From positions 467,077 through 531,076 of the forward strand of contig NMRA01000304.1 in NCBI GenBank assembly GCA_002633005.1: a stretch of DNA of 64,000 nt, read 5' to 3'. Below the pieces are notes generated by a model. It had not been told where the DNA came from and made no database searches. It worked only from the letters and a program-made list of their open reading frames with translations. Positions 491-43,801 of the stretch are shown here, piece by piece; position 1 is the stretch's first letter; each line of letters opens with the position of its first letter. The stretch comes from Phoronis australis (Eukaryota > Animalia > Phoronida). Position numbers and translations under genes: made by a program.

Positions 491-601
491 ATAATGCCCT
501 ATACTGCCATCTTCAGTGACATCAGTAATTTAAATAGAACGATTAGCAAGATCTGGATCAGCAAGCTTTCCAGCTATGGTTGTTACAGTCGAGTCTCTGA
601 G
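491..601 (+). CDS. Aminopeptidase P exon ([37 protein letters not shown])
   Basis: ttatttccAG acceptor, GTattt donor, 111 nt, phase 0/0. Resembles the PY..I...KVWVS...SYA segment of XPNPEP proteins. Confidence 0.8.
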
Positions 602-3600: not shown

Positions 3601-6600
3601 GTTTATGGTTGAGTAATTACACTTAATTGGGTCTTGCTTGCACCGGACAATGCAGTCATCGCAACTGAGTACGATTCTGGCGTCACGCTCACTTTGAACC
3701 CTGTAAAAGCCGCTCAGAAGGACGAGCGTTGAAAAGTCACGCATATCTTTAGAAATGTGTGACTTATGTGTAAGCGTATTCTTCACGGCATGTACATATT
3801 TGTTTTATATGAATGTGAAAAATCTAATTTAACTGCAAAAATTCTCTCATTTTGATGTAGTGATTTGCAACCATAGGTGAAAGCAATTATTGAAAATGAC
3901 TAGATGATACATAATTTGTGCAATTCTTCTCAGGACAAACTCGTGTCTAGCTACTCTCCTATTGCCTTGATGAAGGCGATGAAAAACTCCGTAGAGAGAC
4001 AAGGAATGGCAAACAGTCACGTAAGTGTCTGTTACACATCCGTGATGCTTTACTTGTGCTGTTTTAGAAAATTCCGTTTGTCATTTTTCACTTCTTTTAT
4101 ATACCATGATCTGTGATAAGTTTTGAAATGTTTCGACTCGAAGGAAGATGGCTGTTCAGTTTTGATGTGTAGTTTTAAAGCGAACGCTTTATTATTCTAA
4201 AGGTGTGCGCTGTTGTGCTCTTATGTACAAAAAGTTCAAAATAGGTTAAAGTCAGTTTTTATGGTTTCCATCACAAAATGATGGTGTTACTTCTTTTTTG
4301 GCCTTAAATAGCCTGCGCTAAAAAAGTGTCTTATATTTTTATAATATTTCATTTCTAAAGCAAATTTATAAATGTATTTGTTTGGTATTTGTTTTGCACC
4401 AGGATATTTACTGAAAAATTACAGTAATTTTTCTATTGTTTAAGGCCTGCCACTTTTTCGTATAAATTGTTAATTAGTTACAAAGCATTGTGTTAAGACT
4501 TTTTAGTCTTTATGAAATCCCATACAAGTTGTTACAGTTTTCTCGACTATCATTTTGCTTTCATTTTAAAACTCTATTTTGTCATAGCCTATGATGCTTA
4601 AGCGAACAGTTAAAAAACAATTCCTAATATTGTTTTGAAAAGCACTGATTAAAGGATACTACCAGTAAATGTTTTAGGCGAGTCAGACTAATCATTTCTA
4701 TGATGTTCCGATGTTTTTTAAATTTCTACACCTAACCTCAATGAATGAATAACAATAATCGTGCTGTTTTTCTCCAAGGGAGTTGAAACACTTTACAAAA
4801 AGAGCCATAACAGATTGTTTGTGACAATATGATCGTGGTTTTGTTTTTTTAGGTACGCGACGCAGTTGCCTTGATCACTTTCATGGCATTTTTGGAAAAG
4901 GAGATTGAAAGTGGAAAACGATACACAGAGATGTCTGCAGCTGCTAAACTGAAGGAATACAGAAGGTAAGACTTACTTTACGACAGCATCAACAGCAGCA
5001 GCAGCAGCAGCTGCAGCAGCTGCAGCAGCACAAGTTAAGGTTGTGTAAGAAACTAGGAAAATGTCCAAATTTGGTAATTGTGGAACATCACATCTCAGAT
5101 TCATATGAAACTTTCACAACGTAGGGTTTATGCACTGTTTTCTAAATTGCTGTAAGTCACCTTTAAAATGTTTCACTTTTTCCTGGGGTTGTACAAAGAA
5201 GACTCAAAAGTTGCATAAAATGAAAACAGAATATTTTAGAAAACTCAGGTAACAGCATTTTCGAGATTGCATCTTGAATGTTTATAACAAGTGAAATTCG
5301 TATATGTCATTGATGTTTTGCTATGAGTGTACCCATCTTGTTTGTTAAAATTTATTTAAAAGACATTGTCACATGACCTAATGAGTGACAGATAGACAAC
5401 AGATAAACATTTAAGTCTATGTGCTTTCTACTTTCACAGACTTAATTTGGTCAAATGCACTGACTTGTTTAATTAGGTAATACATGATCTTAAAGCAATA
5501 CTCTAAAATTGTGAAGAAAGAAACAACCAAAATCAGGTTTAAGAGGTCCCTTGCTAACAAACTACAGGTAAATGTTTTTAGATTTTCCAGCAATGATGTT
5601 TGATGATAGAAATCAAAATAGGATGGGTGGGGGAGGTGCAGCTGAGATCAGGCGTGGGGAGGTGGAAACTGAGGGCTGGGTCAAGAAAGAAAGATGAGAA
5701 CTGGAAAGTTTTTGAACACCTGCAATAATGTGGATTGTGGATCATGACCACACAGGTGTCACAACCAGTGCACAGGGAACATATACTACATCCATGTTGC
5801 AGTCATACAGAAATGGCAGAGTGGTGCGTGTATGCTAAACCCAACCAGCTCATAAGGCAATTTTATTATGATAGATGGTCCCGAGTAACTTAAGCTCAAC
5901 CACTTGGGACTGTTAAAATTCCTTAACAAACAATAAAATCAGTTGGTCATCCATATGATTTCACACTTTAATGATATCTCAAACCTTATTCATGAAAATT
6001 GACCGTTTTTATAATATTTCACATGTCAAGCAACATGCCTTATCTTCATCCTCGGGGAACTTCAAGTGCGAAATATATAGCATGTATCAAGAAAAAAAGA
6101 TTTAGCGCAACCACCTTCAAATTTGTTTACCACTTCTCCGGGGTCAAAGGTTACAGAGTTGTCACTCAAAATCGAATCTCCTGGCGCCAGGCCTAGAGCA
6201 GTTCTATATGTACCCTTAGTCCTTTCATTCACCAAGTCACCATAATACTGAGTCAACGAGGTATATATAGCTTGGAAAGATGCCATGGAAAACGAAGATA
6301 AAGCATTCATCAATCTCAAAAACACTGTTAGGGTTTTCTTTTCAAATACCTAGTTTTTGCACACCGTAAAACAGATGAATAAGCTACTATTTTTTACAAA
6401 AATATGTTGCGTTCTGCGAGTTAAGTTGGCGTAGAAACAAAACTAATTGAGTAACCGAAAATTCGAATGTTTTTGAGGTAAATTATGAAGTTTTCATTAA
6501 AATGGGCTTTAATTCTTTAAAATCGACCGATGGGTTATTTTGCTATGAATGTACCTTTCTTGAAGATGAAATTTTGACTCAAAAAGGTGGTAACGTAATA

Positions 6601-9600
6601 ATTAAATAAAACATAGTTTTATAATCTATGATCATTTATCTTTCAAAATATTTATACTTTTGCTAGTTGACACAGCCGGTTTTTTGATAATTATACAAGA
6701 CAGAATGAATAAATGACTATATAAGGTTTGAGATAACCTTAAGCTCACAGTGACAATAACTTAATAGTGGCCTAACACAATCAAAACATTTTGTTTTCAT
6801 TTTTCTGTCTTTTGATACACTCAAATCAGTAATTAAAAACAGCATGTCCAGGTGTGATGGTCCATAAAGTCACCATCCTTGAATTTTGGCTATTTTGCAT
6901 TGCTGGTCTGTATTTGTGATAAGTTTTCTTGCATGTGATGTTTTCCATACCGTAGCAAACAGGCTAACAACATGGGACTGAGTTTTCCCTCCATTTCTTC
7001 TGTTGGTTCCAACGGGGCCATCATTCACTACAAACCGACGAAAGAGACCGATAGAGAACTGACCACAAAGGATATGTACTTGCTGGACTCTGGTGGACAG
7101 TACTTGTAAGTGGTGGTCAAGATATGTTGAGATTTGGCAGAATGAATTTTCATAGCAGGCACCGTTAAATAGTGTAGGGAATTATGCTCAGATTTGTTAG
7201 GCGTTTGGACTTTTGTAGCCATGAAAGTGAGATCTTGCAACTGAAGTTTCCATTAGTTCTGGATTCCAATTTACAAAACTCATTGAAAGTTCAAAACTTG
7301 TAGCCATTAATTTTGAACATTAAGGTGCTTTTAATGTCTTTCATTTTGTGAATGCTTAAAAATGCCTAAACTTATGTCTGAAAATGTCAAAAAATTAAAG
7401 TATCTAAATTTGTTTTAAAATTTGTTTATTTATTATTTTATTTGCTCTCTGGAGTTGAATCTTATTTATTTCATAATTCCTTGAATTCATTGTATTTTGT
7501 TGTTTTCCATGTTGGTCGGAGGTGTATTGAATTATTTCTCGTACCTCCTGGAAACCAGAAATGATAAATTTTAATGAAATAAATCAAATCAAGTAGCATT
7601 TCCTTTTTAAGTGCTGAAAGTCATACTGGCCTCTTTAGATACAGTAAGATTAACAGAAGTCAAACATACACGTGGAAGAATCTCATAAGTTTCAGACAAA
7701 GCATAATTGCCAAAACTGCATTTTTTCAATTTTCAACTGCTTCTAACGTTGTGAAAGCCCAAAAGTGTTTAAAATATTGTCTGTTGGTAGCTTTAGTCAG
7801 GAACTTGAATACGGCTTAATGGTACTGTGTATCATTCATGAAAAAACGAGACCACAGTTTCACCTGTCTCCCTAGTATGGCATTGTGTCTTTTAAGACAT
7901 AAAAATTGGTGTGACTTTACCGTAAGTCATTTTTATTGGGAAAAATACCGCTGTTTTGCAGTACGGTTGTTCCACTTTGTGCACTCAATCCTTCGGATGA
8001 GTTGGATACTCATGTGAGATCTCTCAGTGCGGTAGGACCTGACTTATGCGAATTTTACTGTATTTGATTGCTGACGCATTGAAGCTTGACTTTCAATTAT
8101 TTTCAGCTGTACAGTAAAAATCTGGCTCACATTATGATGGCCAGGAGAAATTTCGTTTTCTTGTTTTCTTTTCCATGAAAGTTATTTACCACCTAATTAA
8201 CTGTATTCCATCTTCCATCTTCCTAGTGAAAATATATGCTGCAACCAGCAGATAATATTTTCATAAACTGTGCACATCTGTAACAACGCTAAAAGGCTTT
8301 GAAAATGAGAAATGGGTAATATTGGCAGATATCGGTGAGATGTTATTGTAACATAGCTTTTGAGAAAAAATTTTATACAGACATTATGGACTAAATTGTT
8401 TGTTGTAATACCTGACGAAATTGGTTGTTTCTCGTTATTCTTTTGCAAAATGATTGTACTTCAGGTCAAAAACTTAATTCTGTTTGAGCATTGTATCTAC
8501 AGTCTTTGCGATACTTTCACAGTGACATTGTTCTTACTTATGCAGGGATGGAACGACAGATGTGACGAGAACTTTTCATTTTGGCACACCCACAGACTTT
8601 GAAAAGGTATGCTCTGATTGTACAGGATGGGATGAAAATCTAGCAGAATCGAGCGTTTTTGAGAATCGAATGTCATCTTGAGCATTCATAATTACATTGC
8701 ACTTACTGCGAAGTCGGTGGCAAGTTTTCTCCTGTGTCGATTGGCCCGAGTTTTGCTCACTATGATTGGGTACAATCAGACGTGGCTTGCATCAGCACTT
8801 CAGGTTTTGAACCCGAATTCTTAGCAAGAGACATTTAATATGCTGTCCAGTGTTAAGTTTTAAATTCGCACTTTCACAGATGGGACAAAGTTATCTTTGC
8901 CTTCGTCTTGAGGAAATACATTCCAGCAACTTTGAATGAAAAAATAAACATCCAACTCTGAGAGGAGTTTCATTAATTTGAAGAGTGAAAGTCGCAGAAC
9001 TAGCACAATGGGTTCTTCTTGTAAAACTGCTTTCTGGAGAAACTTGACATCACAGATGTTTACTTTGTTTAATTAAATTAAGCACAACACCTGATTCATA
9101 CAGAAATTGTGTAACTCCAACCAGCTCTTTTGGCCTCAGGAGAAAACTTGACTACGGAATATGATTTTCTTTATTTTTTTGTATGGTTCTGAAATGTTCA
9201 TACTATAAATTTGAATACAGAAATTGATAAACATAATGTGATGAGTAATCGTAAAGTCATTAACCATTCCCTAGACACAATTTTTAGTTGTAACTGTCAC
9301 CCATGGAACAGTTTAGCCAAATACAAGTAATTTAGTTCATTTTAAAAATTCCATCCACCATAAGCTTCGAGTACTTCTTTAATTTTCCAATTCTCTTTAG
9401 GAAGCCTATACCCTCGTTCTTATGGGCTCAATAGATCTTGCCAGGGCTGTTTGGCCTGAAGGAGTTTATGGTAAGGTCTTGTTTGGCTGTACTTTGTCAT
9501 GATCCCGGTGTGTGTTTCACTATGACTCCATTCTTTTGCACAAAAAGATGCGTGCCAAAATTGTTACTTTTTTACTTTTCAAAAGCTGTCTACCTTCCTG

Positions 9601-12600
9601 TAAATAATGGAAACTATCAAATGTTGTTTTAGGACACCTACACAGTACAACCTTAATGCATGTAGTAAACTAAAATGTTATTAATTTTTATTTCGTGGAG
9701 ACATTTGACAAAATAAATTTCACTAGTCAGCAAAGTTTTGTGCTAGGAATTAACTGTTAGTGATGTTAATAAACGGACCTTCAGAGGGGTTTCAGGTCAT
9801 TATCTTATCATTGTGTCTGAAAACCAACGATTTATTACATAACCACTGATACTTCTGTCCTATGATTGGCTGAAACACAGTTATTATTTTTTGTAGGAAA
9901 TATGCTAGATTCTAACTGTTGATCTCTTCACTGTTACTGCAGGTCGTGCCATAGATGCCTTTGCACGTGGTCCGTTATGGAGGGCTGGATTGGACTATAG
10001 GCACGGGACAGGGCACGGTATTGGTCACTTTCTCAGTGTTCATGAAGGTAAGCGAGGCTAAACTTAGTAAATTAGTTAAGGTATGAGGTTAAACTGAAAG
10101 TTAGTTGAGTGTTAAGGAGCACATTGATAATAGTTCTTGTCATTTAAACTCATGACTGGGTGTTTAATTCATCATTAACAGTGGTCAGGATGCAAATTGG
10201 GAAAATATTTTATGACGAGAAATGTGTTTTCTCATAATTTAAGGTCAGTGTCTACCTTTGTTACTAAACATTTGATTTTTTTAAAATAACTTTTGAACTA
10301 TTAACAGTAGACTCATAAAACTATATATTTTTAAAATCATTGAGTATCACACAATGATTTATCTTACTGTGTGCATGAAAATAATATTCTGACATTTGTG
10401 ATCACGCGGCTACATTTTTTCTGAAGAATTACATTTTTCATGGAGATGGCCTTATTTTCCATAAACATTTTTGCTCAAAACTTGTAAATTCTGTTTCTTT
10501 GTTCTATTAGGTACAAAATAATGTCTGGGATTTTCTTTTAAGGCCTCTTAGTCCAAGAAATCTGCTGTCAAAAATCAAGACTTCAACATTTTTGAAAAAG
10601 CGAAAGTCTTGATTTTTTACCTCAGATTTCTGAGGCTCAATGCCTTAAGAAATCCCAGACAGTGTTTTGCAGCTAATAAAACAACGAAACAGAATTTGCA
10701 AGTTTTGAGGACAAAAACGAATTTGTGGAAAAATCGTCGAGCTCCGTGAAAAATTGTAATTTTTTACGGAAGTGCAATCATGTGATAACAAACTTTTGAA
10801 CATGTTTTCATGCACAAAATAAGATTCTCTGATTTTTTAAAATCCCTACTATATTTTTAAAAAAATGTAGTTTTATAGGTTGAGTATTAATAGTTGAAAG
10901 CTATTTTAAAAAATCTGTGGTAACGAAGGTAGCCAGTGACCTTAATGGAATGGCTATAAAGTTTACCTGTTGAAACGCTTGATCTGCCTATGGTAATTCT
11001 TCGCTTATTTCGATCAAAAACTTCCAAAAGTGTCATTTTTGAATTTTTCAAAGGCCTGTTACTTTGTTACGAATAATTGAAACTTCACTTCAACGTTGAT
11101 TTATGATATCTACCCAGTACAAACTATGCTATTATTTTCGGTGGCCCGAAAGTATCATCGCTATTTTAGTTTATTAATTTTTTTATTTTTCCTTTTCCAC
11201 CTAGGAAGAAATATTTCAACCCAGGTGGAAACTATTTTCACCCGGGTGGAAATTATTTCAACCTAGGTGGAAATTATTTTCACCCGGGTGGAAACTATTT
11301 CAACTTTGTGGAAATTATTTTCACCGGGGTGGAAATTATTTCAACCTAGGTGGAAATTATTTTCACCTGGGTGGAAACTTTTTCAATCTAGGTGGAAATT
11401 ATTTTCACCCGGCTGGAAATTATTTTCACCTGGGTGAAAATGTTATACATCCGGGCACCTATTTTCAGCTGTGTTGTGATTGGATGAAGTCTTGTATGTG
11501 AAGGTCGATTGGGCCAGCCATTTTCTTCAACAAAGTTCAGATTAGGTTGCAATGTCGGCGCCTTATCTGCCTCTTGGATTTGCCGAGGACTTTAACAGAG
11601 ACAGTGTGATTACATATTACTCTTAGTTCCAAAACAACTCTCTGAATAAAGTTGCCGGATTTCAGCAACGAACCCAAGCCATTAACAAATATAGTGTATG
11701 GTGTAGAACGTTGAGAAATTTCCGATAAATAAATGACATATTATTGTTGTTGTCCAAAACCCTCACCCTCCCCGTGCTGACAGGTTTCAAAGGCTTAAAG
11801 TTACACAACTAGCAACAAAAAGCACAGATAGTATTATAAATATCCCACAAATGGTAAAAGACGTATGGTGAATCACATTGTATGGATTCACAAGAGGATA
11901 CAAATTTTGGTAAATAACCAGCATGATTAATTAATTATACACCAGTCTTAAAAATTACTTAACATTGTTTCTAATTAGAGTATAATTGTCAACAGTGTCA
12001 GAAATGTCACTAACCAATAGTGTAATACAACACATAATTTCTCATTAAAATACGTATTTGTGTATGACCATTGCAATGACAATCACCTTCAGTAACCAGC
12101 GTATAACAGTACAAAGTATTCAAGATTAAATGATACTGTAAGGTACAGTCCAGATAAAGTAAAAAAATTCCAAATTAGTAACTTTCCATGAAATACTTAC
12201 AGCTCTGGTCCCTGTGGTCTCCAAACATGAACTAGCACTCGGGTGTGAAACTAGTTGCGCAGTAGAACCTTTCCTATTAACGTCCTCTTTTTCCTTGATT
12301 CGCTTGTTATGTGAAGTTGAAGACGGAGGTATCTTATAGCTGAATAGTTTGACAGATCATCGATATTTAAGGGATTGCCAAAGTTTGTCCTTAATAGTTT
12401 GCATATGTCCAGGTTAACCTAAAGTGGGCCAGCACACTGAACTCAAGACTGTTTAAAATTAATTTTGTGTTGATGACAGAAACCAAACAACTTAAAGGGA
12501 CTCAAATTGATAATTGTCGAAATTAATTGCTAAAAAGGAAACCTTTCGGGGTCAAGCGAAATTTCTTGCACAGATTGTCCTGTATATGTCTGCAAACATG

Positions 12601-15600
12601 TGGTGGCAGAATGATCTAACCGATTAACATGAATAAACAAAACAAAACAAAACAGAGCATTGTTTTAGAGTGCTACAAAAGGGTGTGCAGCTATGGCTTG
12701 ACACGTGACTTGTTCCTAGCGCAAGTAGATGACGCCACGTTAACCAAACGACGTACAAGCATGAAAATAATTTCCACCCGGGTGAAAATAATTTCCACCT
12801 AGGAATAATTTCCACCTAGGCTGAAATAGTTTCCACCCGGGTGAAAATTATTTCCACCTAGGTTGAAATAGTTTCCACCTGGGTGAAAATAAATTCCACC
12901 CGGGTGAAAATAATTTTCACCTAGGTTGAAATAATTTCCACCCAGGTGAAAATAGTTTCCACCCAGGTGAAAATAATTTCCACCTAGGTTGAAATAGTTT
13001 CCACCCAGGTGAAAATAATTTCTACCCAGGTGAAAATAATTTCCACCCAGGTGAAAATAATTTCCAACTAGGTTGAAATAGTTTCCACCCGGGTGAAAAT
13101 ATTTTCCACCCAGGTGAAAATAATTTTCACCTAGGTTGAAATAGTTTCCACCCAGGTGAAAATAGTTTCCACCCAGGTGAAAATAGTTCCCACCTAGGTT
13201 GAATTATTTCCACCTAGGTGGAAAATGAAAAATGAAAAAATAATTAAACTAAAGTAACGATGATACTTTCGGGCCACCATAAGTATTAGACTATTTTTTT
13301 CTTCGTTTTATAATTGTGGAGAAATTTGACTAAATAGAATTTCACTTGTAAGTCATATTGCGTGCTAAATAAGGGACGAATTACCGTACGTTAGATTTTA
13401 ATCAAGTAAGCCCCGACGACTTTTTTCATATGTTATGATAATAGTTAACTGTGTTGTTCAATTTTCAGTCGATAACTAACTTTCGTGCTGCTTCAGTTCT
13501 CCGTGCATGATTTAAATCTTACACACGACTGGATAAATCTGGTATTCCTTTATCACTGACGTAAGGTTGTGAGTAATCAGTTTTGAAAATCTGTGCCCTC
13601 AGCTAATAGTCCGCAAATGAATTAATATTCCACTAAAAGATTATATCTTCTGAAAAAAGAATGTGCAAAACATTTTGATTTGGTCTTTATGCCAGTATCA
13701 CATTGATTTGGTCACTTGAGCATGTCTCTTTTGTAAAATTTAGCAAAATACAATCATCACTTTTACCAGATAACAAAACAGTTATATAACTCGAACAATT
13801 TTATGCGCCCATTTATAGGTATGCGGGTGCACTGTGGCGTCATTTATCTCTATCCGACGTCTGCTACTTTATGGACAAAATCCCTTGATGGGTGTTTGTG
13901 AAATTTTGCAGACAATTGCTCCTATCATGAATGGGATGGCACGGGTGAATTTTCAGGCAGATTTGACTATTGCTGTGCCTCCTAGTGGCAATTTCATTTT
14001 TTTACATGAGCCCGTATATCTATATCTACTGAGTTACTTGACGGGTGTTCGTGAAATTTGGTAAATAGGTTTCAGTTAAAGAGACAACACTACACCTTCC
14101 TGTATTGGCAACATTATCTGTGGCCCGCAGTGGCCGTTTTTATTATTTTTGCATGCCTTTATCATCTGCCTCTGTCTGCCAAACCAATCGTATAAAAGAA
14201 TCATTGTAAACGTTGACAGATGTTTTCAGTCCTATCAAAATGAACATGGCTGACATTGATTTTCCGTTGGGTCCATCTACTGTGGCGCCCCCTGTGCCTG
14301 ATCTACCAAGTTCCATGTTGTATCTTTGGACAGTCTGTGCGTTTCAATTGAAAAGATCATGGCTGGCATTGATTTTGGACTGTTAGACTGAACTGAGGTG
14401 TTCCGTAGCGGCAATTTAGGCTTCTGCATAATTATAGCTCCTGCGGGGGCTGCCGGGATGTTCATGAAGTTTGGCTGTGAGGAAGAGACACCTGACTTCC
14501 GTAATTGTTTCAGACGGATTCAGCTTATATTACACCTGGCTTTTTATTATTACTATTATTATGTCTGTTTTTGTCGTCTGTCTCCTCATCTCCCTTACAA
14601 AAATGAACTTAAGTTTTCATCGAAAAACTTAAGTTTTTGGTCTGAAAAACTTAAGTTTTCATTCCCGAAAACTTAAGTTTTTGGCGAAAACTTAAGTATT
14701 TTGGAACAAGTTTTTTGGAACGAACTTAAGTTTTCATAACTTAAGTTTTTCAAAAACTTAAGTTCTGAAAACTTAAGTTTTTCAAAAACTTAAGTTCGTT
14801 CCAAAAAACTTGTTCCAAAAAACTTAAGTTTTTGGAAAACTTAAGTTTCAGAAACTTAAGTTTTTGAAAAACTTAAGNAATTATAGCTCCTGGCTGCCGG
14901 GATGTTCATGAAGTTTGGCTGTGAGGAAGAGACACCTGACTTCCGTAATTGTTTCAGACGGATTCAGCTTATATTACACCTGGCTTTTTATTATTACTAT
15001 TATTATGTCTGTTTTTGTCGTCTGTCTCCTCATCTTCCAAACTGCTCGAGTATCACCATGAAAAGTAGCGTGTGCTTTCTTACTGACAATATTGTTTTCG
15101 GATAAATTTGACTGTGATAATTTTTTCAGGTTGCTTTGATATCTACTAACATTTTTGATTGATATTCATCATGTTTGACATATATGTTCATATTGAGGAG
15201 AGCAAAGTTGGTGTTCTCCCTCTAGTGGGAATATTTAAAATTATCATCCCTTGGATCTGTGCTGTTGCAATGCACACTGGTGACGCTCAGCATTTCTCTT
15301 GTTCAACTCTGTTGCCTTATAGTATTGGCCTCTGTGAAAAACGGTGGTCACAGGCAGCAACTTGTTTGGCTTGCATATAAATCTTGGACGTATGTGATGT
15401 ATAAAATTATACCATTTCTACAGTTTCGTGATCAGTGACAACCCCTTTATACATCTGCAGGTCCAGCACGTATTCGTATTGGCTACCGTCCAAATGAACA
15501 GCCTATCCACGTTGGCATGTTTTTCTCTGATGGTGGGTGATGTCAATGCACACAAACTATTTGCATGTCTAGCAAGCTTCTGTAGGCACTGCAGTCTGAC

Positions 15601-18600
15601 CTGTTGTAGCATTGCATCTAGTCATCCCAAGTTGCAATTAACCTGTCTGTGTGCTCTACTTCATCACATTCAAACACCAAAACAACAGAGCTTAAAGTAG
15701 CCTCAGTTGAGAGTCACAGTAAATGGTTTTACCAAAACATATTGGGTGTGCAAAATGAAATCTGTGTGCAAAATGAGTGGAGATTTAGCATACTCCGAAT
15801 AAAACTCCATTAAACCATGTCAGGGAAAGATGCAAATCATCTTTCACCATTGAGAATATGCCTGCAGGCAGCGGCTCTACCTGAACTTATTGTGGCCAAT
15901 GACAAACAAGTTACCAACAACCAAATGCGAAAAATAACAAAAGACACAAAAGCAATTAGCACCAACACCTCGTGCCCATTCTGCAACTGTGTTACCCTGC
16001 AAGTTATAGTTATTAGTTTCTCTCCTCACTCGGCCTGGTTTGGTTTGTTTAAATTTTGTTTGTCGTTAGGTCCTTCCTCTATTGGTCAAGGTTATTCACC
16101 AAGCCAAGAGCCTTTGCTGGTTGGAATGTTTCTGTCAGATGGTGGGTATGATCCTTGTGGTCTCGTGGAGAATAAGCTGTCTGAGGAAAGTTGAGATCAA
16201 ATTGAACTGCTTTTGGGTTTGGAGCTTGAACATTGTCCTGCTCCATCCAGACTGCCAAGAAGTGGTGAAATTTGGCTGACTTCATTAAGTACAAATTAAG
16301 GCCACTGTGTAAAAATGCTTCATAGTTCTTATCTGGAAAAATTTAAGGTGGATGGAGAAAAGGGTCGGTCAACTTAACTGAGTTAACTTTCTCCACGAGA
16401 CGCGCGTAGCTTTATTAATGCCTTCCCACATTGAACTTACTCTCTGATGGCTTCTATGAAGGATATTTATAAAAGCTATGCAGCCATTGGTCTCTGCTCA
16501 CACCGTGGGAAAGACATGTTCAGCCAGTTGGCTCTGGCGTGTCTATGTCTGATGAGGTGGCACTCCTAATACTCTGTGCGCTTGCTCACGACACTGACTT
16601 TGTGTGTATAACTTACCCCTACATGCACTTATTTAAAGCCATAGACAACGCCATAGGTGAGTCACCATCAATATAAGTTAATAATTAGTACGGGAGCACT
16701 CAAATGATGCAGAAATTTGATTGGCAGTGGAAGCGTTTTACAGATATGGCCAGAAAATTGAGATTTTCAAGTTAATTTCATTTTCGATTTCAGCATAATA
16801 TAAGTACAGGACACTCAGTTTTGTGTGTATGAAAATGCTGACGTGTTGCAAAAAATGCTCAAAGACAAGGTTACTGAAGTGTGACTGCATATTGCACTTC
16901 AACAGTTACTTTTACTCTAAATAACCCGTGCTATTTAGGATCTGAATTGCATCAACTACTCATTTGTTTACCTTAATTGCCGTCCACACAGAGACGTACT
17001 CTAGAACAAGTTTATCCTGGAACGAGTTGTCTCTAAGTTTTGGGAGCAGAGTGAGTGTCTGGACACTACTTAAACTATAGTACAACTTACCCGACTTGTG
17101 GCAACTTACTCCTTACCTTACCCAGGTACTGTGGCAATAAATATGTACAAAAACGTGAATTGAGTTGAAGTATGATTATACCTGTTGCGTGGCGAAGACC
17201 TTTTTGTTGTGTTTGGCTTTAATGATTTCCCTTTCTGCACTGGCCTATTCAGCTTTTACTGCATTTAAGTACTCAGCCTCACGATTACTCATGTAGTATT
17301 CTTCAATTGGAGTTTCAATTTACTCAAAGGCCCTGTCTACATCGGCACCAAGGCTGGCAAAATCGTTGATCAGCCTAGCCTGCACGTAGGCATATTTCTG
17401 TCTGATGGTAAGTTGTGCGACATGCTTCTCTGCGATGCTGAAAACCGGTAGGTACATTAATGTATAGACCTGTTACAAGTGATTGACACCAATGCGCTAT
17501 TTGCCTGGATTACCAATAAAAAATCACTGGTTTCAAGTTAGGTGTTGGGGGCGAGCAACCTGACCAGAACAAGTAAATACTTGGGAGATGCAAGAAGTAA
17601 ATGAAAAAACACAGGTTCGGTATAAAAAACTTGCATTGATCACAGCTTTGCGACTCGTGTTAACTTGGTAGACTAGGACACAAAAGTGGGACTCAAAATG
17701 AGTGATTTCTTTCTCACTTTTTACGAAAGAGATAAAGTATTATGTCAGTATCGTTACTGCTACTGCCGTCGGACAATATTTTGAAAAATTTCAGGCAGTC
17801 AAAACAATAGTAGAAGCTACTGAAAAATGAAAAAGGGCAACTTTGGTAATTATTTTTGTCCAAAAGTGTAAAATTTTACAGTGAGTGTATGAATTTTGCC
17901 AGGTGGTGGATCAATTTTCAGTAGACATGCATTCACAAAGGTGTATGGGAACTTTCAAGAAACTAAAACCAAATGTGGAAGTTAAAAAGTGAACTTTCGG
18001 AAATTGGGAGTGGTAATTACTATATCCAGCCAAACTTGAGACTTCAGTAATGCAGACAATTTCATTCACAACAAGACATTTTTAAATGTCATGTTAAAAC
18101 ATGACCGTTTTGAAATCTATATTTTTGCGTTAAATCGAGTATCAATTACATTTGTATGCATTTTCTGATTTCCTGTGATAGCTAATTGCTTGTTTGGTCT
18201 TGACTGGTATCTTTCGCTATTATGCATAATTTCTGGTTGCTAGACGCATAAATTTGGGTTTTCTTAAGAACGTGCAAATTAGGTAGCTCTGTTCACTCCA
18301 CATAGAATATTGTGTGAATTAAGCTGTCAAAATATTGGTAGGTAGAGACACTTATTGGTTGCTTATCTGCACCAAAGCATCAATTGCTGGACGTAGTTAA
18401 CGTGGGTTATGAGATTGTTAGAAACCCTTGGGCAGTGAAAAATTGACAATTTGGCAATTATGCTTGTCCAAAATCGGTGACTACGGTAATTCTACAGTAA
18501 CAGCAATGTTTGTTTAAAAGTAGCAACAGCTTTGAAGATATTTTGAAAGATTCTCAGCTTAGTCATGAGTTGGTTAGTCTTGAGACTGGAGCCATTTCAA

Positions 18601-21358
18601 GATAGTCATTGGTGCAAAAGCATTGCTTCTACTAGGGTGATTTGTAATGAGTAATATCTTGAAATCCGGCTGTAGTTTACTGTTTTTTCAATAACTGTTG
18701 CAGCAGTTTCCATTGTACAATTTCTGTTTCTTTTCTCTTGCCAGAGCCCGGTTATTACGAGGACGGAAAGTTTGGAGTCCGCCTGGAGACCATAGTAGAA
18801 GTGGTGAAAGATAACACTAAGGTGCAGTCAGACAATTGATGTGTAAATTTTCATGTCTGCTAAAATTCCACTCGTCCTCTTTTATCACAGAAATTAACTT
18901 AGAAAGTTCAGAAGTTAATCAAGCATTTTTGTGCCCCCACAGACTTCTTGATATCTCAAAAACTTCTGGTTGGATTTTGATGAAATTTGGCACAAGGGTG
19001 TAGGCCGTCACTAGAAGGGTTCGATTCATGCTACTTTTCAATCTGCCTCGCCCCCCCCCTTGGGTCAGAGCGGCATAGCTTTGTCTGTATTTTTGGGGAA
19101 GAGCATTTCCGGGTGATATCTAGAGGATGGATCGGCAGATTTCAGTGAAACTTGACACAAAGGTTTGTAGTATCAATGCGCCTGCATGTTTAAATCGTCA
19201 GACGGATTTGATTACTGCAGCACCTCCTATTGGCCATTTTGTTTTCAGTGAGGGACTTTTCAAATTGTTTGGGGAAGCGCATTTCCGGATGATATCTAGA
19301 GAACCGATTAGCGAATTCCAACAAAACTCAAGACTGTTATATGATGATGTGCCACTATCATTTGATTTTCGGTCAGTTTCGACCACTGCAGTGCCTCCTA
19401 GTGACCATTTTGTATGAGCGTTTCCATATGATATGTGGAGAACCGAGTGAAGGATTTCAATGAAAGTTGACACAGAGGTTTGTGATAAGAATACGTCAGC
19501 ACCATTAAATTTTCAAGCAGATTCGACCACTGCAGCACCTCCTTGTGGTCATTTTGTTTTCAACATGGGCATTTCAAATGTTGCTTTGGGGGAAGAGCAT
19601 TTCCGGTTGATATCTAGAGAACTGATAGGTGGATTCCAATGAAACTGACGCAGAGTTAGGTATATGATGAGATTGCACTTGAACACCATTTGATTTTCGT
19701 CTGGATTCGACTACTGCAGTGCCTCCTACTGGCCATTTTGTGTGAGCGTTTCTGGATGATATGAAGAGAACTGAGGGAAGGATTTCAATGAAAGTTCATA
19801 GAGACGTAATTGTTTGGACAGTGCAACGGCACCATTAAGTTTCCGGGTGGATTTGACCACACACAACATCGCCATTTTGTTTTCGACCTGGGCTTTTGAA
19901 GTTTTGTTTGGGGGAAGAGCATTTTCGGATGATATCTGAGGAACCAATAAGTTCGTCCCAGATTGCACTGCAACAAGAATCTCACTGTATTTACCCACAA
20001 TGATGCCCTAAACACTCCTCGCGCACATTTGCTACATTGTTTTGCGTGCTATTTGTTGTCTGATCCAATACAAGTTTTTCTCGATTGCATTACTCTATTC
20101 GTCCTTCCAATGCCAATGAAGTATTATGGCTGTGCTGTGGGCTGCAAATCCAACATGAGAAAGCTTGATAAACTCACTGGACAAATAAATACCCATGGAT
20201 GCGGGATGTGAAATTCTTCACCTTCCCAACATCAATGATGCTCTTTCTGTATTTTGGTGCTAATAGTTTCTGCCTGCAGTTATGGTGGGTTCCTGAATGT
20301 GCTTTATCCTTACGAAATAATCATTCTAGTGCTTACAACATATTTATACTTTGTGAAGCCATGGGTGATGAAATAGGCAAAAAAGTCCATTGACTTGGCT
20401 GCATCTGAAGTATTGTAAATGGCAGGACAGATTTCTAAAGAAATAATGAATAAATAAAATATAAAGCTATGGTACAGTGTACTTGATTAAAATATTTCCG
20501 ACTTTGCGAAGCAAAATGACTTCTTCTGCAAGGGGGACGAGGCTGTCAAGGAAGCCAGTTAAGTACAAATATTTTAAGCAAACATGACAGATTTCTGTTT
20601 AATAAATATACTGTCTGAATTATGACAATTTACAGTCATTCATTTGTTCAAATTTTGCTGTTATATTTCAGTACCGCTTTGACAATATGACGTATATGAC
20701 GTTTAATGCCATCACTCTAGTTCCATTTGAGCCCAAGCTCATTAATCTAGAAATGCTGGACAGGAAGCAGGTAGGTGGTCAGTGTGAAGCAGGTATGTAG
20801 TCACCATGATGCAGGTATGAGTGGTCAGCATGAAGCAGGTATGTGGCCAGCGTGAAGTAGGTGTGTGGTCAATGTGAAGCAGGTATGAGTGATCAGCATG
20901 ACACGAGATACAAGGCCAGTGGCCTAAATTCATTAGCCTTATTTGTTGATTAAATGACAACATGTTTACTTCAAGTTGTTTAAAAACAAATAATTGTCAA
21001 GTCTTGGGCTTATTTGCGTCAATTTGCAATTGTTACGGACCTGACACGTTCCTCTGCTCAGTGAATGCGTGTATGATTTACGAATCTTCAAGTCAACATG
21101 TCATTGCCTTTGTGGTATACCTTAAAAGAGTAATTACCTCCCTTGTATTTTTGTCTCTAGCGTTCTTGGCTTAATGCTTATCACAAGAAATGTCGTGATG
21201 TAATCGGGCCACTGTTAACTGGTGATGCCAAGGAATGGCTGAACAAGAGGACGAAACCTGTAAATATTGACCCGAATATCTCCAGTTCCTCCAACTCTGT
21301 GAAGACTACTATTGGTCTGTTCTGCCTGTGTTTTGTTTTGTGTTTTTACAAGAACTGA
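491..21358 (+). CDS. XPNPEP2: Xaa-Pro aminopeptidase (aminopeptidase P, peptidase M24B), membrane/GPI-type; 5' exons lie upstream of the window. join(491..601,3934..4020,4853..4965,6956..7105,8546..8606,9401..9470,9943..10047,[15461..15532|16070..16141|17330..17407],18745..18821,20672..20770,21161..21358)
   Basis: All exons are bounded by AG/GT with consistent phases. Translation gives aminopeptidase P motifs: [101 protein letters not shown]. The hydrophobic C-tail resembles XPNPEP2; exact orthology (XPNPEP1 vs 2) is not established. Confidence 0.95.
3934..4020 (+). CDS. Aminopeptidase P exon ([29 protein letters not shown])
   Basis: ttcttctcAG acceptor, GTAAGT donor, 87 nt. KAxKN motif precedes the catalytic domain. 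Confidence 0.92.
4853..4965 (+). CDS. Aminopeptidase P exon ([37 protein letters not shown])
   Basis: Poly-T then AG acceptor, GTAAGA donor, phase 0/2. Confidence 0.95.
4984..5031 (+). repeat. Imperfect (CAG)n microsatellite, intronic
   Basis: cagcatcaacagcagcagcagcagcagctgcagcagctgcagcagca, just after the donor at 4965. Confidence 0.85.
5972..6738. mobile_element. Non-autonomous DNA transposon with TTAA target duplication (Kolobok/piggyBac-like)
   Basis: TIR core TATCTCAAACCTTAT / ATAAGGTTTGAGATA; TTAA at 5968-5971 and 6739-6742. Confidence 0.65.
6956..7105 (+). CDS. Aminopeptidase P exon ([49 protein letters not shown])
   Basis: cgTAG acceptor, GTAAGT donor, phase 2/2. Contains the first metal-ligand Asp (DSG). 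Confidence 0.96.
8546..8606 (+). CDS. Aminopeptidase P exon ([20 protein letters not shown])
   Basis: tgCAG acceptor, GTATGC donor. TTDVTRT metal-ligand motif. Confidence 0.96.
9401..9470 (+). CDS. Aminopeptidase P exon ([24 protein letters not shown])
   Basis: ttctctttAG acceptor, GTAAGG donor, phase 0/1. Confidence 0.95.
9943..10047 (+). CDS. Aminopeptidase P exon ([34 protein letters not shown])
   Basis: tgCAG acceptor, GTAAGC donor, phase 1/1. HGTGHG..VHE active-site motif. Confidence 0.97.
10243..10941. mobile_element. Near-palindromic MITE with TTAA target duplication and GG...CC termini (Kolobok-like)
   Basis: ttaa|GGTCAGTGTCTACCTTTGTTAC ... GTAACGAAGGTAGCCAGTGACC|ttaa. Arms stay complementary toward a centre near 10590. 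Confidence 0.8.
11137..13281. mobile_element. Foldback-type non-autonomous DNA transposon, IS3EU-like, with long TIRs built from 20-21 bp tandem units
   Basis: Termini ttcGGTGGCCCGAAAGTATCATCG / CGATGATACTTTCGGGCCACCata. 6-bp flanks ATTATT/AGTATT. Arrays of AAATAATTTCCACCCAGGTGA-type units at about 11200-11445 and, inverted, about 12760-13225. Confidence 0.8.
13799..14430 (+). mobile_element. Degenerate Helentron-associated (HINE/DINE-1-like) repeat
   Basis: Starts TTTTATGCGCCCA; carries GTGCCTCCTAGTGGC core units related to 27781-28555 and 50926-52520. Right boundary approximate. Confidence 0.55.
14593..14877. repeat. AACTTAAGTT-rich palindromic array, probably the end of a TE, cut by the N at 14878
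   Basis: 14 CTTAAG copies with internal inversion symmetry around 14755-14775. Absent from the duplicated flank after the N. Confidence 0.75.
15461..15532 (+). CDS. Aminopeptidase P alternative exon A ([24 protein letters not shown])
   Basis: ctgCAG acceptor, GTGGGT donor, 72 nt, phase 1/1. Fills the gap between VHE and EPGYY. Confidence 0.9.
16070..16141 (+). CDS. Aminopeptidase P alternative exon B ([24 protein letters not shown])
   Basis: gtTAG acceptor, GTGGGT donor, 72 nt, phase 1/1. Paralogous to exon A (GP..I..GY.P...P..VGMF.SD). Confidence 0.88.
17330..17407 (+). CDS. Aminopeptidase P alternative exon C ([26 protein letters not shown])
   Basis: caAAG acceptor, GTAAGT donor, 78 nt, phase 1/1. 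Paralogous to exons A and B. Confidence 0.82.
18745..18821 (+). CDS. Aminopeptidase P exon ([26 protein letters not shown])
   Basis: Long pyrimidine tract plus CAG, GTGCAG donor. Holds both metal-ligand Glu residues. Confidence 0.96.
18926..20030 (+). mobile_element. Helentron-associated (HINE-like) repeat with about 150-bp tandem core units
   Basis: Starts TTTTTGTGCCCCCAC; recurrent ACTGCAG(T/C)(G/A)CCTCCTA.TGGCCATTTTG and TTTGGGGAAGAGCATTTCCGG.TGATATCTAGAG units. Boundaries approximate. Confidence 0.6.
20109..20230 (+). pseudogene. THAP-domain-like N-terminal remnant, probably from a transposon
   Basis: [18 protein letters not shown]..., then after a frameshift VKFFTFP, matching the CxxxC..N...FFxFP start of THAP zinc fingers. 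No continuation. Confidence 0.45.
20672..20770 (+). CDS. Aminopeptidase P exon ([33 protein letters not shown])
   Basis: tttCAG acceptor, GTAGGT donor, 99 nt. Confidence 0.93.
20764..20901 (+). repeat. 22-24 bp minisatellite (6 units) that tandemly repeats the exon donor site
   Basis: Unit GAAGCAG|GTATGTGGTCAGCAT; the first unit overlaps the exon end at 20770. Confidence 0.9.
21161..21358 (+). CDS. Aminopeptidase P last coding exon ([17 protein letters not shown]...[25 protein letters not shown])
   Basis: ctcTAG acceptor, WLNxYH..CRDVIG motif, TGA at 21356-21358. Confidence 0.93.
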   Translation, partial: RSWLNAYHKKCRDVIGPLLTGDAKEWLNKRTKPVNIDPNISSSSNSVKTTIGLFCLCFVLCFYKN

Positions 21359-21975
21359 GATGCCTTTTATGGCTTCTTTCTCATTTTAGTAGTTCTTCTA
21401 GTCGTTCCTAGTTGCAGATTTTCAAACATGCAACTTCTGTTCAAGTGTACAAATTTTCAAAGCTTTATATTATATCCAAGTTGTTAGACTCCTTATGATA
21501 TTAATGAAATTTCTTAGGTAATACATTGATTTGCTTTTAAACTCAAGTTGTAATATGAATTGATTTTTGGATGTTTTACTTGCATGGTTACTTGTATATG
21601 TTTTTTCTACTTTTAATGAAATTTATTGATATTAATATTTTAATTTGTTATTGAATTAAACAAAATGCCAGTTTAAAGTTTGAAGTACTATGATGTGAAT
21701 TGTTTAAATAACTTAACAATGTGCCAAGTTTTAAAATTTGAAATGTTAGGTAGTGAATCACTTAAATAGCAATCAGCATTTTGTAAAGAATGGATTATAA
21801 TAAGTATCACGCTGAAAGTATGTTTCTCTATAAGTGAGTGTTTCACAAAAACGTGGTAATGTAACTAATTAATTTCCAATATCCAAGTAATAACTTTGTA
21901 TGAATGATGCTTAACTGTTGACGTGCATGATATAGCTTTTGTTCAAGGTACTTGGCTGTATTAATGGGATGAAGC

Positions 21976-22722: not shown

Positions 22723-25700
22723 TCACCGGGGTAACGCTTTAGGGCTAGTGATACCATGTTTAACCCCCTTCCTCCATACAGCAACGGGGACTATCAGTTG
22801 ACTAACTTTCCGAACTTCTCCGTGACAATCCGGTAAGTCAACAGCTGATGGTTTTAAGCATAGCACGGTAATGTCAGCTTCCCGACCGACGCCCAAAGAT
22901 CCAATTTTTTCGGAAACACCGAAGGCTTTGGCCGGATTGCTTGTAGCTGTTTTGATGACTTCGTTTAACGGCATTCCCAGATGTAGCAACTTTGACATAA
23001 CTGTAGGAAGATCGTATGCGGGGCCATTGACATTACCGGTGTGAAGGTCTGAGCCCGCAAGATCACACCAGAAATTCTCTTTGGCGCACTGCTCGGCAAC
23101 AGCCCAGCTAAAGGAACCTTCTCCGTGCCCTACGTCAAAAAAGATTCCTCGTTTCTTAGCCTCTAGAACTTCAGGAAATAGTGAGCCTGATTGGGGATTG
23201 ATGATGGAACCATCGTTTCCGTGTAGCGCGTGAGTGTAAATGTCGCCTTGGCGCAGACTACCGGGGCACGACATCGATTGACCTGAAATAGAGTTAGTGG
23301 TTTATAATCTGTTTTGTGGGAAACTGACCGAAGTTGAGGTCGATATTAAGGTGACACAAACTTGTTACATTACATATACCGGTAATTGCATGACTACAGG
23401 CCAATGTCACGACGTAGCAAAATGACGAGAAAGATTGCCCTCCAATAAAATAACAGTTTGGTAAAATGCCAGGTAGACATTGGAAACAAAGGAGACTAAA
23501 AGAAGTTTCAAGTACAGTAAAATAAGGATGGCTAACAAAAGTGTAAGACTAGCACACGGGAGGCTTGGGTGAATAAGGTCCATTCATCCCAAGTCAAGTA
23601 CATATGCCATTTTACATGCACCCACGTATCTGCCGACAAGCGTTGATTTTTCAAACAAATGCCTAGGCCACCATGATTTGATTTTCTCCTAAATTTGGCA
23701 TTTTGTGCGTGTCAGTTGTACGAATTTTGTCAGCAGGGTCGTCTTCTGTGCCCGGCCCGAGCACAGCAGTGCATTGCGACCTCTGCCAACGCCGCGGCAA
23801 CTGCTCCATAGTAATGAAATAGGTAGGGGGTTACAACTAATCCAGTCTGCGATTACCAGTTAACACTAGAAACCTACTGTACGCAGTTTGGGACTTCCCC
23901 TGACAGTTCTCTAAAACTAAATTCTGTGTAAACCTCGTAAACCCTCTGCCAAATGTTGGAACACATTTTGAAAACTCCTGCTAAACTGACAAGCATGACC
24001 TACGCGACACTGAAAGGAAAGACCATGCCACCCATTTAGAAACATGGTACTTATTCTGTTGAACATTGGTTAGTGTCTTAGTTGATTCCTATTTTATCAG
24101 CGCCAGTTGAGACGCCAATGGTGCATTAACAGGGGACAGAAAGAGTGGTTGGAAGCACGAAAACAGGGTTTAACATCTTTTTAAGGAACAAAAATGTTTG
24201 GAAACCGTAATGCATACCTTTCAAAATGCAATGAAGGAAAGGGATATGACGCGCATTTGGCCTGAACTATGCATTCGGAAATGGAGTCCAGAGTAACAAT
24301 TAACAAGGGTGCGTCCCTTAGACCCGAGACACTAGCAAAGCACTTAAGACGAGAAATTTCTGCTTAAGCCTATGGAACAGCGAATTCTATCCCATAATTT
24401 AAAAAGGCTACTAAACCTTGTTTTGATGATTTCAACCAATCCCCGTTTTGTCACCAGCTAATGCATCATTGCCGTCAATCTTCCAAGTTAAATACAGGAA
24501 TCGGCTAAAACTCGCAATCCCTATGTCACAAACTGAACACTATGGTTCTTATAGTGAGTGGTCTTTTCCCACAGTTGCCGTGTAGGCCTAATTCGCTAAA
24601 AGCGTATCTCACGCTTGCCCGTGTTGCAGATCTTGAAAGGAGTTTTCAAATTTTGCTCCAAACATTTGAAGGTTACTCGACGGGAAAGTCTTTTTTAATA
24701 TCTGTCAATAGGCCAAAACTGGGTTTGGTATCCTTTTAACACTGCAAACTCACTGCCGCTAAGGGGTACCTTTCGCTGGTTCCCACGTGCCTATAGCCAG
24801 AGCGTGCTGGCTACCGACCACCTAGCGGCACGCAGGGAACCAGCGAGAGGGGTACCACCGAGGTACTAAGCTTCAGAGCATACTCTCTAAATACTTTCAC
24901 TCACGACGTTATTATAATCTAATTGCCTTTCCAAGAGTTTGTTTGGCGTGTACAGAACGCATTATATAAGCAATGCGTTACGTTATCATATCGAGCAAAT
25001 TGTCTTAACTTCAACTTTTCTTTATTTTGCCAACAACCCAAGTACGTACTCTCTATCCAATTTACCGGAATCGTTGAAAGCGTATGGTGAGTCATCAGTG
25101 GCAGCTGACACCGGGTGGCGACACTGAGCGCTCTCCTGAAAATACTCAGAACAATTAACGAAGCAACTCGTCGAGCACCGATAAAGGGAATATGTTGTAA
25201 TTCATCTTTGACAAAAACGCGCGTTACTTTCCCGATCTGTGACTGTGCTTTGGTCATTATTAAACAAGAGCAACGCGGAGCGTGGAAATGCGCCCACGAA
25301 TGCATCGCAAATGGTGTGTTTTTAGGGTTGTTTATTTGTGTCATAAAAATGGCCACTAGATGGCGCAAGAACCTACAATCCATCCGGAAACGGGAACATG
25401 TCATTGCTTCTGTCGCAGAATGTGTTATTGTGTTTTTGGTTCATTACTTGTTTAGTTTAGTCACCGTATTACATCACTTACTGTTGTTGTTTACTACCAC
25501 TTTCTCCGCATGCAGAAGATGAGTAATACTTCCTTTCCCAGAACTGTTTATCATCAGCATAGTGCATCCTTTATTTGTTCATTAATTTCATTGGTTAATT
25601 CGTGTTTCTCAGGTCTCTATATATATCACTTTCACCATATTTTAAGTAGTATCAGTAGCTTCAGTAGTATGAGTTGATTAGTAGTTTGTTCTCCGCATTG

Positions 25701-31700: not shown

Positions 31701-31953
31701 GGCAATCTCGGTCTGGATTGATGCCCAGCGGTGTTGCGTATTCGTAGCAATGGACATGGGAGTCGATTAAACCCGGAGTCACAATGTATCCGTCTGCATC
31801 GAATACCTCTACAGCATGTGCTGGCGAAATCTCCCTCTCCACTGCGGTTATCACACCATCTTTAACAGCGATGTCCAGGATTTCATCAACATTGTTAGCT
31901 GGATCAATCACTCGCCCGTGTTTTAAAAGAATATCGCATGCCGAGCCCGCCAT
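22723..31953 (-). CDS. Metal-dependent amidohydrolase/deacetylase copy 1 (COG3964, Atu3266/EF0837-type, dihydroorotase-like), 401 aa. complement(join(22723..23282,27564..27649,29119..29266,30129..30245,31659..31953))
   Basis: Five GT-AG exons give a continuous frame. Motifs: GRVIDPAN, PGLIDSHVH (HxH), GVTTIVDCGSAG, GIKIR (carboxylated Lys position), LMTHH, GDIYTH, FDVGHGEGSF, GSDLH, SNPAKAFG, GREADI. A second near-identical copy of exon 4 lies at 25050..25135 (probable haplotype overlap). Confidence 0.92.
24765..24856. repeat. Small hairpin element (mini-MITE-like); second copy at about 27253-27344
   Basis: GGTACC..TCGCTGGTTCCC ... GGGAACCAGCGA..GGTACC with an inner TAGCCAG/CTGGCTA stem. Confidence 0.6.
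25411..25718 (+). mobile_element. Possible 5' part of an LTR, cut by the N at 25719
   Basis: Begins TGT exactly where the two duplicate copies diverge; TATATATA near 25618; absent from the other copy. Confidence 0.4.
27781..28555 (-). mobile_element. Helentron-associated (HINE/DINE-1-like) element in amidohydrolase copy 1 intron 3
   Basis: On the minus strand: TTTTTATGCGCCCAC subterminal IR with nearby inverted copy, (CCGT)n microsatellite, core repeats, then GTGGGCGCAT, stem-loop CAACGCTCCGCGTTG and CTCTTGTT end. Confidence 0.7.
30459..30602. mobile_element. 144-bp IS3EU-like MITE
   Basis: TIR TACGGTAG.CCAAAGAT.ACATCG; 6-bp flanks GATATG/AATATG. The paralogous intron has the empty site (single AATATG near 38758). 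Confidence 0.8.
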
Positions 31954-32418
31954 TGACTCGGGCTATACCGAATAGATTTCAGTGTACGGCGGTGCTCCGC
32001 GGCGAGATATTAGCTACTGTTGGCCTGCGTCCAGAACTACATACCGTGTTTGTCCTACACATACTCCGTAATCAATGATATCGTATGTGACCCCAACTAA
32101 TCTTGAGGGCCTAAACGGCAAAATGATGATTGTTGACTAAGACCCGGTTTTGTACGACCTACATTTCACAGCTGCTGTCGTAACATGGATTGTGGGAGTG
32201 GGCGTGCACCGGGAATCGTGCGCATCTTGGACTATCTATGGGGCGCATAGACTTGTCGCATCGACCGGGCTCGTGGGATTAGTCAGATACATCCTCGCTG
32301 GTTCCGTGCGTTTCTGATTGGCTGGTCGAATTGTCAACAAGTAGCGCTTTACGTAAACAAGCTGGCACGACTGATGGAGGAAGTGTAAATGTGAATACTA
32401 TAGTTTGTGGTCTGTTGT

Positions 32419-43695: not shown

Positions 43696-43801
43696 TGAAA
43701 GGAGAAATGGTATGTTAGCCTGTTAACTCGACAAAGCAGGCGACTATCTGATACTTGGTCACGGGGTCAGTCTTAGTGTAATGTAGCTTTAGTCAGTAGA
43801 G

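Follow-up and report, generated by a model that had tools for sequence, protein, structure and literature searches.

Mutually exclusive tandem exons exchange the segment between two active-site motifs of an aminopeptidase P in Phoronis australis

The three-domain aminopeptidases P, such as human XPNPEP1 (3CTZ), C. elegans APP-1 (4S2R/4S2T), Plasmodium APP (5JQK) and the membrane enzyme XPNPEP2, have the same fold, metal ligands and active-site His residues as the enzyme described here. Substrate length is set, in the prolidase and aminopeptidase P of bacteria, by an Arg close to the active site that holds the carboxylate of the substrate (PMC4213023); E. coli PepQ Arg370, PepP Arg371 and P. 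furiosus prolidase Arg295 are residues of this kind, binding the C-terminal carboxylate, in two-domain enzymes, unlike the probable three-domain enzyme considered here (PMC4213023). Duplicated mutually exclusive exons are known to tend to lie near functional sites (bioRxiv 10.1101/292813). It is rare for a switch between tandem exons to retune an enzyme, and few such switches have been tied to a defined residue. Here we describe an aminopeptidase P gene on a 64,000-nucleotide (nt) stretch of the Phoronis australis contig NMRA01000304.1 (hereafter the window), in which the segment between the substrate-binding His (VHE) and a metal-ligand Glu (EPG) is encoded by tandem alternative exons, named A, B and C. 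The solved three-domain enzymes have a single loop at this place, with Gly or Ser at its position 4, whereas the gene of the window offers a choice of exons, bears a tail resembling a glycosylphosphatidylinositol (GPI) signal and falls outside the cytosolic clade.

From the letters alone, a sequence-only reading had proposed that one exon of the three is used at a time and that one gene thus makes three isoenzymes; it had named the junctions with the flanking exons as the thing to count, and routine joint inclusion of copies as the outcome that would speak against the idea. RNA was aligned to positions 9800-21500, using about 18-19% of three stranded runs of one study (X1-X3) and the contigs of a fourth run (X4), two studies altogether; the junction results are those of the 15 joints listed out of 30. 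Both A and B are joined to the same flanking exons. Reads entering A (10047>15461) numbered 24, 16 and 49 in X1, X2 and X3 (89 in total) and those leaving it (15532>18745) 27, 13 and 55 (95), while B was entered (10047>16070) by 27, 20 and 59 reads (106) and left (16141>18745) by 35, 21 and 74 (130), an A:B usage of about 44:56. The outgoing reads of A and B together (225) match those of the next constitutive junction (57, 38 and 127, or 222), and no joint linking A to B or skipping the segment was found among the listed half, although low-level events may lie among the other 15. In X4, A and B stand on separate 124-nt contigs that share their flanks and form an A/B bubble. Since both exons join the same flanks, their sum matches the downstream junction and no A-B or skipping joint is listed, A and B are spliced mutually exclusively.

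The positions, lengths, AG/GT ends, phases and stop-free frames of the three exons (Table 1) are as the sequence-only reading had given them, and so are the flanking exons, of which the upstream one ends in VHE and the downstream one starts with EPGYY. The three copies are homologous and adjacent, of equal phase and compatible length and with intact splice sites, and A and B are joined to the same flanks, as is expected of tandem-duplicated mutually exclusive exons. When we compared the 118 open phase-1 candidate exons of 54-102 nt between 10048 and 18744 with the three peptides, scores above 4 went to A, B, C and splice variants overlapping them and to nothing else. Ranked against 169 distinct homologous loops from other species, A, B and C scored 87.9, 69.4 and 40.0 respectively, the best unrelated candidate among 665 on the whole plus strand reaching 21.2. 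No fourth copy of the segment, and no duplicate of any other exon of the gene, was found in the window. Exons A and B have 12 of 23 residues in common; B and C share 11, of which 7 are specified through different codons. The fractions of synonymous and non-synonymous differences (pS/pN) are 0.61/0.30 for A-B, 0.81/0.34 for A-C and 0.83/0.33 for B-C, values that rest on 19-23 codons and are close to saturation, and the 40-nt flanks are 18-28% identical, which is the random level. The excess of pS over pN in all three pairs, together with intron flanks at random identity, suggests, from few codons, that selection has acted on the copies. The description of exon C as Lys-rich has to be dropped: it holds just two Lys, and its basic and acidic residues are equal in number.

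Table 1. Exons of the aminopeptidase P gene, candidate regulatory stem and neighbouring genes (positions in the window)
Feature	Position	Strand	Content	Support
Most 5' exon found in window	491..601	+		
Constitutive exon	3934..4020	+		
Constitutive exon	4853..4965	+		
Constitutive exon	6956..7105	+	AIIHY His and first metal Asp (LLDSG)	
Constitutive exon	8546..8606	+	Second metal Asp (GTTD)	
Constitutive exon	9401..9470	+		Loose RNA read ends at 9942 match exon
Constitutive exon	9943..10047	+	HGTGH and VHE (metal and substrate His)	Match to 3CTZ 468-499, E 9e-11
Alternative exon A	15461..15532	+	72 nt, phase 1-1; Arg at segment position 4, GPAR type	Junction reads; X4 contig depth 67.1
Candidate regulatory stem, 5' arm (intronic)	15894..15925	+	Pairs with exon B pyrimidine tract and acceptor	Predicted pairing
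Candidate regulatory stem, 3' arm (exon B acceptor region)	16038..16073	+		Predicted pairing
Alternative exon B	16070..16141	+	72 nt, phase 1-1; Ser at position 4	Junction reads; X4 contig depth 79.9
Alternative exon C	17330..17407	+	78 nt, phase 1-1; Tyr at position 4; weak AAG acceptor, consensus GTAAGT donor	Sequence only
Constitutive exon	18745..18821	+	Two metal-ligand Glu (EPG, RLE), common to all isoforms	
Constitutive exon	20672..20770	+		RNA junction, homologues
Last coding exon	21161..21358	+	Peptidase_M24_C (PF16188, E 4e-11), Ser-rich spacer, short hydrophobic tail	
Tandem amidohydrolase genes, C-terminal exons	22723-23301 and 34749-35387	-		
Tandem amidohydrolase genes, N-terminal exons	31537-31962 and 43372-43722	-		

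The same segment is swapped in other animals, which goes beyond what the sequence-only reading had claimed. We examined 27 protein clusters, picked out of three homologue searches for their isoform labels or several members; swaps were read from automatic RefSeq gene models, and a common locus was judged by identity outside the segment and by near-consecutive accessions. Isoforms differing only in the segment occur in 12 of the 27 clusters, from 14 species: the molluscs Babylonia, Littorina, Pomacea and Mya, the brachiopod Lingula (three versions), and the echinoderms Lytechinus (two species), Strongylocentrotus, Asterias (two species, up to four versions), Patiria (four), Acanthaster (three), Apostichopus and Amphiura. 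Examples, all labelled 'xaa-Pro aminopeptidase 1-like', are Lingula anatina XP_013414157/59/60, Asterias amurensis XP_071800485-8, Patiria miniata XP_038048036-9, Strongylocentrotus purpuratus XP_030850914/5, Babylonia areolata XP_076445428/9 and Mya arenaria XP_052807404/5. Like the gene of the window, these sets are identical outside the segment from VHE to EPG and offer two to four alternatives, mostly with one Arg4 form. Identity both upstream and downstream of the segment was found in all 15 isoform sets tested, including a hybrid pair from amphioxus, whose difference at four residues is probably a swap as well. Among the 14 named species, 13 have one version with Arg at position 4 beside others with Phe, Tyr, Ser, Asn or Val there, and Lingula has the same three residues, Arg, Ser and Tyr, as the copies of the window. 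The predictions for Nucella and Elysia contain two copies of the segment in tandem within one protein.

The exon sequences of these sets are lineage-specific. In a tree of the exons, from which three 13-residue exons were left out, the second exons form a caenogastropod Phe type (bootstrap 98), an urchin Ser type (93) and a sea star Asn type (95), while groups of non-Arg exons across phyla reach just 33-48, so that orthology of these copies between phyla has no support from the tree. This contrast favours, without proving, a duplication that has arisen repeatedly and independently.

Some further observations concern the same family. The sea stars Asterias, Patiria and Acanthaster have in common a version of the segment with 13 residues, which lacks the GP start and is 11 residues shorter than usual; this form might leave the pocket wide open or make the enzyme inactive. 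Other segments are swapped between isoforms of the same length in Argopecten (residues 516-534), Mya (438-475, which includes the exon with the AIIHY His), Branchiostoma (about 186-280), Mercenaria (the first 19 residues) and Amphiura (99-114), and, on these models, the family seems to be a hotspot of tandem exon duplication. A 145-residue protein labelled Salmonella sp. in the Apostichopus cluster has an echinoderm-type loop and is likely a mislabelled or contaminant record. Of the Sinanodonta and Petrolisthes models, one fuses VHE directly to EPG without the segment and the other adds 14 residues after it; both are probably prediction errors.

What the swap could do is best judged from solved homologues. 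By alignment, with offsets inferred from the published ligand numbers, position 4 of the segment corresponds to human Gly503 and Plasmodium Ser658, and position 7 to Tyr506 and Pro661; positions 8-12 correspond to C. elegans residues 505-509. Ser658/Gly503 has been reported as the sole difference in S2' between the Plasmodium and human enzymes, and Pro661 as contacting P4' (PMC13100289). In the C. elegans enzyme the pair of residues at apstatin's C-terminus points towards loop 505-509, which was not modelled (PMC4404410). A flip of C. elegans Arg505 onto apstatin (PMC10377022) was set aside because the primary paper states that residues 505-509 were left unmodelled (PMC4404410). P. furiosus prolidase Arg295 would fall at segment position 3 plus or minus 1, going by the match range and an assumed gap pattern. 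In the predicted model of a homologue with an A-like loop (mean predicted local distance difference test score 91; template modelling score 0.86 to 3CTZ), a short strand at positions 1-5 is followed by a 15-residue exposed loop and then by a strand leading into the metal Glu. With S2' lined by position 4 and P4' in contact with position 7 in the solved homologues, the exon swap likely tunes the preference for substrate length or charge.

We favour, as a fairly probable account, three old tandem exon copies of which A and B are used one at a time, with C likely a rarer third choice, giving isoenzymes with a shared metal centre and different prime-side (S2'-S4') pockets. Position 4 of the segment would line S2', position 7 would lie at P4', and positions 8-12 would form an exposed loop towards the C-terminal end of the substrate. 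Arg4 of A would be long enough to reach the P1'-P2' end, and could extend towards the carboxylate that ends short Xaa-Pro peptides or make acidic residues preferred at that place; with Ser4 (B) the pocket would be open, and with Tyr4 (C) lined hydrophobically, for longer or bulkier peptides. The duplication of the exon would have arisen several times independently. A bolder proposal, which we put forward tentatively and hold to be doubtful, is that molluscs, brachiopods, echinoderms and P. australis each independently evolved a splice switch of one Arg, between an oligopeptide-trimming form and a prolidase-like cell-surface form that finishes extracellular Xaa-Pro di- and tripeptides.

A number of observations weigh against the favoured account. 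No junction of exon C appears among the joints listed, its bin has intron-level depth, and in X4 its depth is 0 and no contig covers it; for these reasons C is rare or silent in the sampled RNA, and of the sequence-only proposal the exclusive use of A and B has stood while the third isoenzyme stays a proposal. The A:B ratio shows no difference between X1, X2 and X3 (chi-square p 0.89) and similar in X4, so that no regulation at the level of samples was seen. The small number of codons behind the pN/pS values counts here too, as does the structural evidence: in Plasmodium APP, Ser658 does not contact the ligand directly, its C-beta being 6.3 Å away from the P2' ring (PMC13100289), and the apstatin contact table of the C. 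elegans enzyme lists no residue of the segment (PMC4404410). Amphiura and the amphioxus pair lack an Arg4 form. Finally, 15 of the 27 clusters show no swap in their annotation (two of Dreissena, Athalia, Bacillus rossius, Petrolisthes, two single-member Logan clusters, Liolophura, Tubulanus, Argopecten, Biomphalaria, Mercenaria, Ptychodera, Acropora and Argiope), Liolophura being the nearest match to the gene of the window (215 of 343 residues identical), and a genome may contain copies missing from its annotation.

The rare or absent use of C in the sampled RNA raises the question of whether only A and B are functional, C being a decaying duplicate out of use. The lack of a C junction among the joints listed for four runs from two studies would fit, as would its acceptor, which is the weakest of the 12 checked, the sole one with A at -3 and the one with the fewest pyrimidines (11 of 20), and its score, the lowest of the three against homologous loops (40 vs 69 and 88). 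However, C keeps an open frame, a consensus donor and, between flanks at random identity, 7 of the 11 residues in common with B through different codons; GPVY- or GPPY-type loops also occur in Mya, Lingula and a bivalve-like transcript, and the RNA covers only part of three runs of one study, with half of the joints listed. We regard a dead C as a doubtful explanation. Another possibility is that splicing is mutually exclusive but the swapped loop mainly alters inhibitor or partner binding, closure of domain I, stability or pH optimum. This would suit the position of the most variable part, the exposed 15-residue loop left unmodelled in the C. elegans complex (PMC4404410), the lack of direct contact at position 4 in Plasmodium APP (PMC13100289) and the 13-residue versions of three sea star species, which resemble large structural or activity switches. 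Yet it is position 4, located on the short strand directly behind the substrate His, that changes repeatedly, in 13 of 14 species, and position 7 contacts P4' in Plasmodium APP (PMC13100289); we consider a role away from the substrate unlikely.

It is also conceivable that the copies are near-neutral, the exon duplicating easily, either copy working and the choice being stochastic. A constant A:B ratio is what such a process would give, other exons of the gene are duplicated too in Argopecten, Mya and amphioxus, and some sets differ little (Patiria isoforms X1 and X2 by 2 residues, the amphioxus pair by 4), but the lineage-specific second exons are kept as distinct types across species, with the high bootstraps given above, and the Arg/non-Arg contrast recurs across phyla, which makes neutrality quite improbable. 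An A:B ratio near 1:1 would likewise be produced by alleles or separate gene copies placed in tandem through an assembly error. This we find hardly credible: A and B agree at barely half of their residues and their flanks are unrelated, both exons, spliced to identical flanking exons, occur in all four runs, the stranded pre-mRNA depth of X1-X3 runs on without a break across the introns, and the same arrangement is found in many independent assemblies.

If A and B exclude each other, something must enforce the choice. Exclusivity can arise passively, through frameshift and mRNA decay, steric clash of splice sites, incompatibility of U12 and U2 sites or a distant branch point. None of these applies, because every copy length is a multiple of three, the introns between the copies are long enough (537 nt for A-B, 1188 nt for B-C), all sites are GT-AG and the AG-free zones span just 15-51 nt. 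A predicted stem that would hide the acceptor of B is a possible part of an active switch. In a pairing screen of 10 acceptors, only the partner of B's acceptor beat all 40 shuffles; as refined after the fact, the stem has -30.3 kcal/mol, and 0 of 300 shuffles were as good in two shuffle schemes. Against such a switch, the stem was found at one acceptor of the 10 screened, a rival arm at the acceptor of A was looked for and not found, and the whole 201-nt stem region folds no better than shuffles (z -0.9). A predicted pairing of 17196-17228 with 16611-16660 (-23.9 kcal/mol) is not counted as a docking site. The arrangement recalls exons 7a/7b of human ATE1, where RNA pairing has been proposed to enforce the choice of one exon of two (bioRxiv 10.1101/2020.06.04.134791); ATE1 has two competing, conserved and tested pairings, whereas the single stem predicted here resembles half of that switch.

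The gene has ten constitutive exons within the window, spanning 491-21358, and its start lies upstream. Whichever one of the three copies is spliced in, the reading frame stays open up to the stop that ends the last exon. The part in the window begins at about residue 316 of a 705-residue homologue, and homologues carry PF01321 and PF16189. The shared exons hold the whole set of five metal ligands (Asp, Asp, His, Glu, Glu) as well as the three His of the active site, matched to 3CTZ via homologues, and the product is probably a three-domain M24B aminopeptidase P. It is likely a GPI-anchored membrane enzyme, because the last exon bears a Ser-rich spacer and a short hydrophobic tail, both judged by eye. 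In a quick gene tree made without the segment and holding no vertebrate XPNPEP2, the gene falls among tailed invertebrate forms and apart from cytosolic XPNPEP1 (support 0.94), and weakly beside lophotrochozoans (0.53). Its introns hold tandem repeats at 11194-11441, 12762-13226, 14606-14877, 19138-19796 and 20764-20901, with units of 21, 17-44, 328 and 22 nt, which draw many partly matching RNA reads.

Elsewhere in the window, two tandem, near-identical, intron-containing amidohydrolase genes (PF01979/PF07969) occupy 22723-43722 on the minus strand, tail-to-tail with the aminopeptidase gene. Two single-exon small heat-shock-like genes, at 53399-54241 (minus) and 54647-55498 (plus), stand head-to-head about 400 nt apart; the former has two HSP20 stretches and the latter looks similar by eye.

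The exon swap is thus real, undescribed as far as searched and already implicit in RefSeq models. The sequence-only reading knew of no description for aminopeptidase P, and none was found among the literature matches listed, in a search that left most subscription papers outside. Tandem-duplicated mutually exclusive exons are a known kind of device, and it is the recurrence across phyla, with the Arg/non-Arg contrast at a position lining S2', that raises the interest of this one. Natural isoforms identical save for 13-28 residues occur in at least three phyla besides that of P. australis, and such sets amount to controlled experiments, already at hand, on what fixes substrate length in M24B peptidases, in aminopeptidase P as against prolidase. 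They would also make a clear case for studying the repeated evolution of one splice switch. The switch may also matter for the digestion of proline-rich protein, or the removal of peptide signals, in marine invertebrates.

Two described systems come close. In C. elegans coq-2, exons 6a/6e are likewise mutually exclusive duplicates that alter active-site residues of one enzyme; that enzyme belongs to a different family, and its substrate switch has been proven by genetics (PMC8659336), whereas for aminopeptidase P it is inferred. ACOX1 likewise has a homologous exon pair in an enzyme (PMC8373072). XPNPEP1/2 are not named in the text of that paper or in the one supplement searched. ACOX1 differs as a peroxisomal oxidase with two copies that is present in human, and its exon pair has been reported to have separate origins, in chordates, echinoderms and molluscs (PMC8373072).

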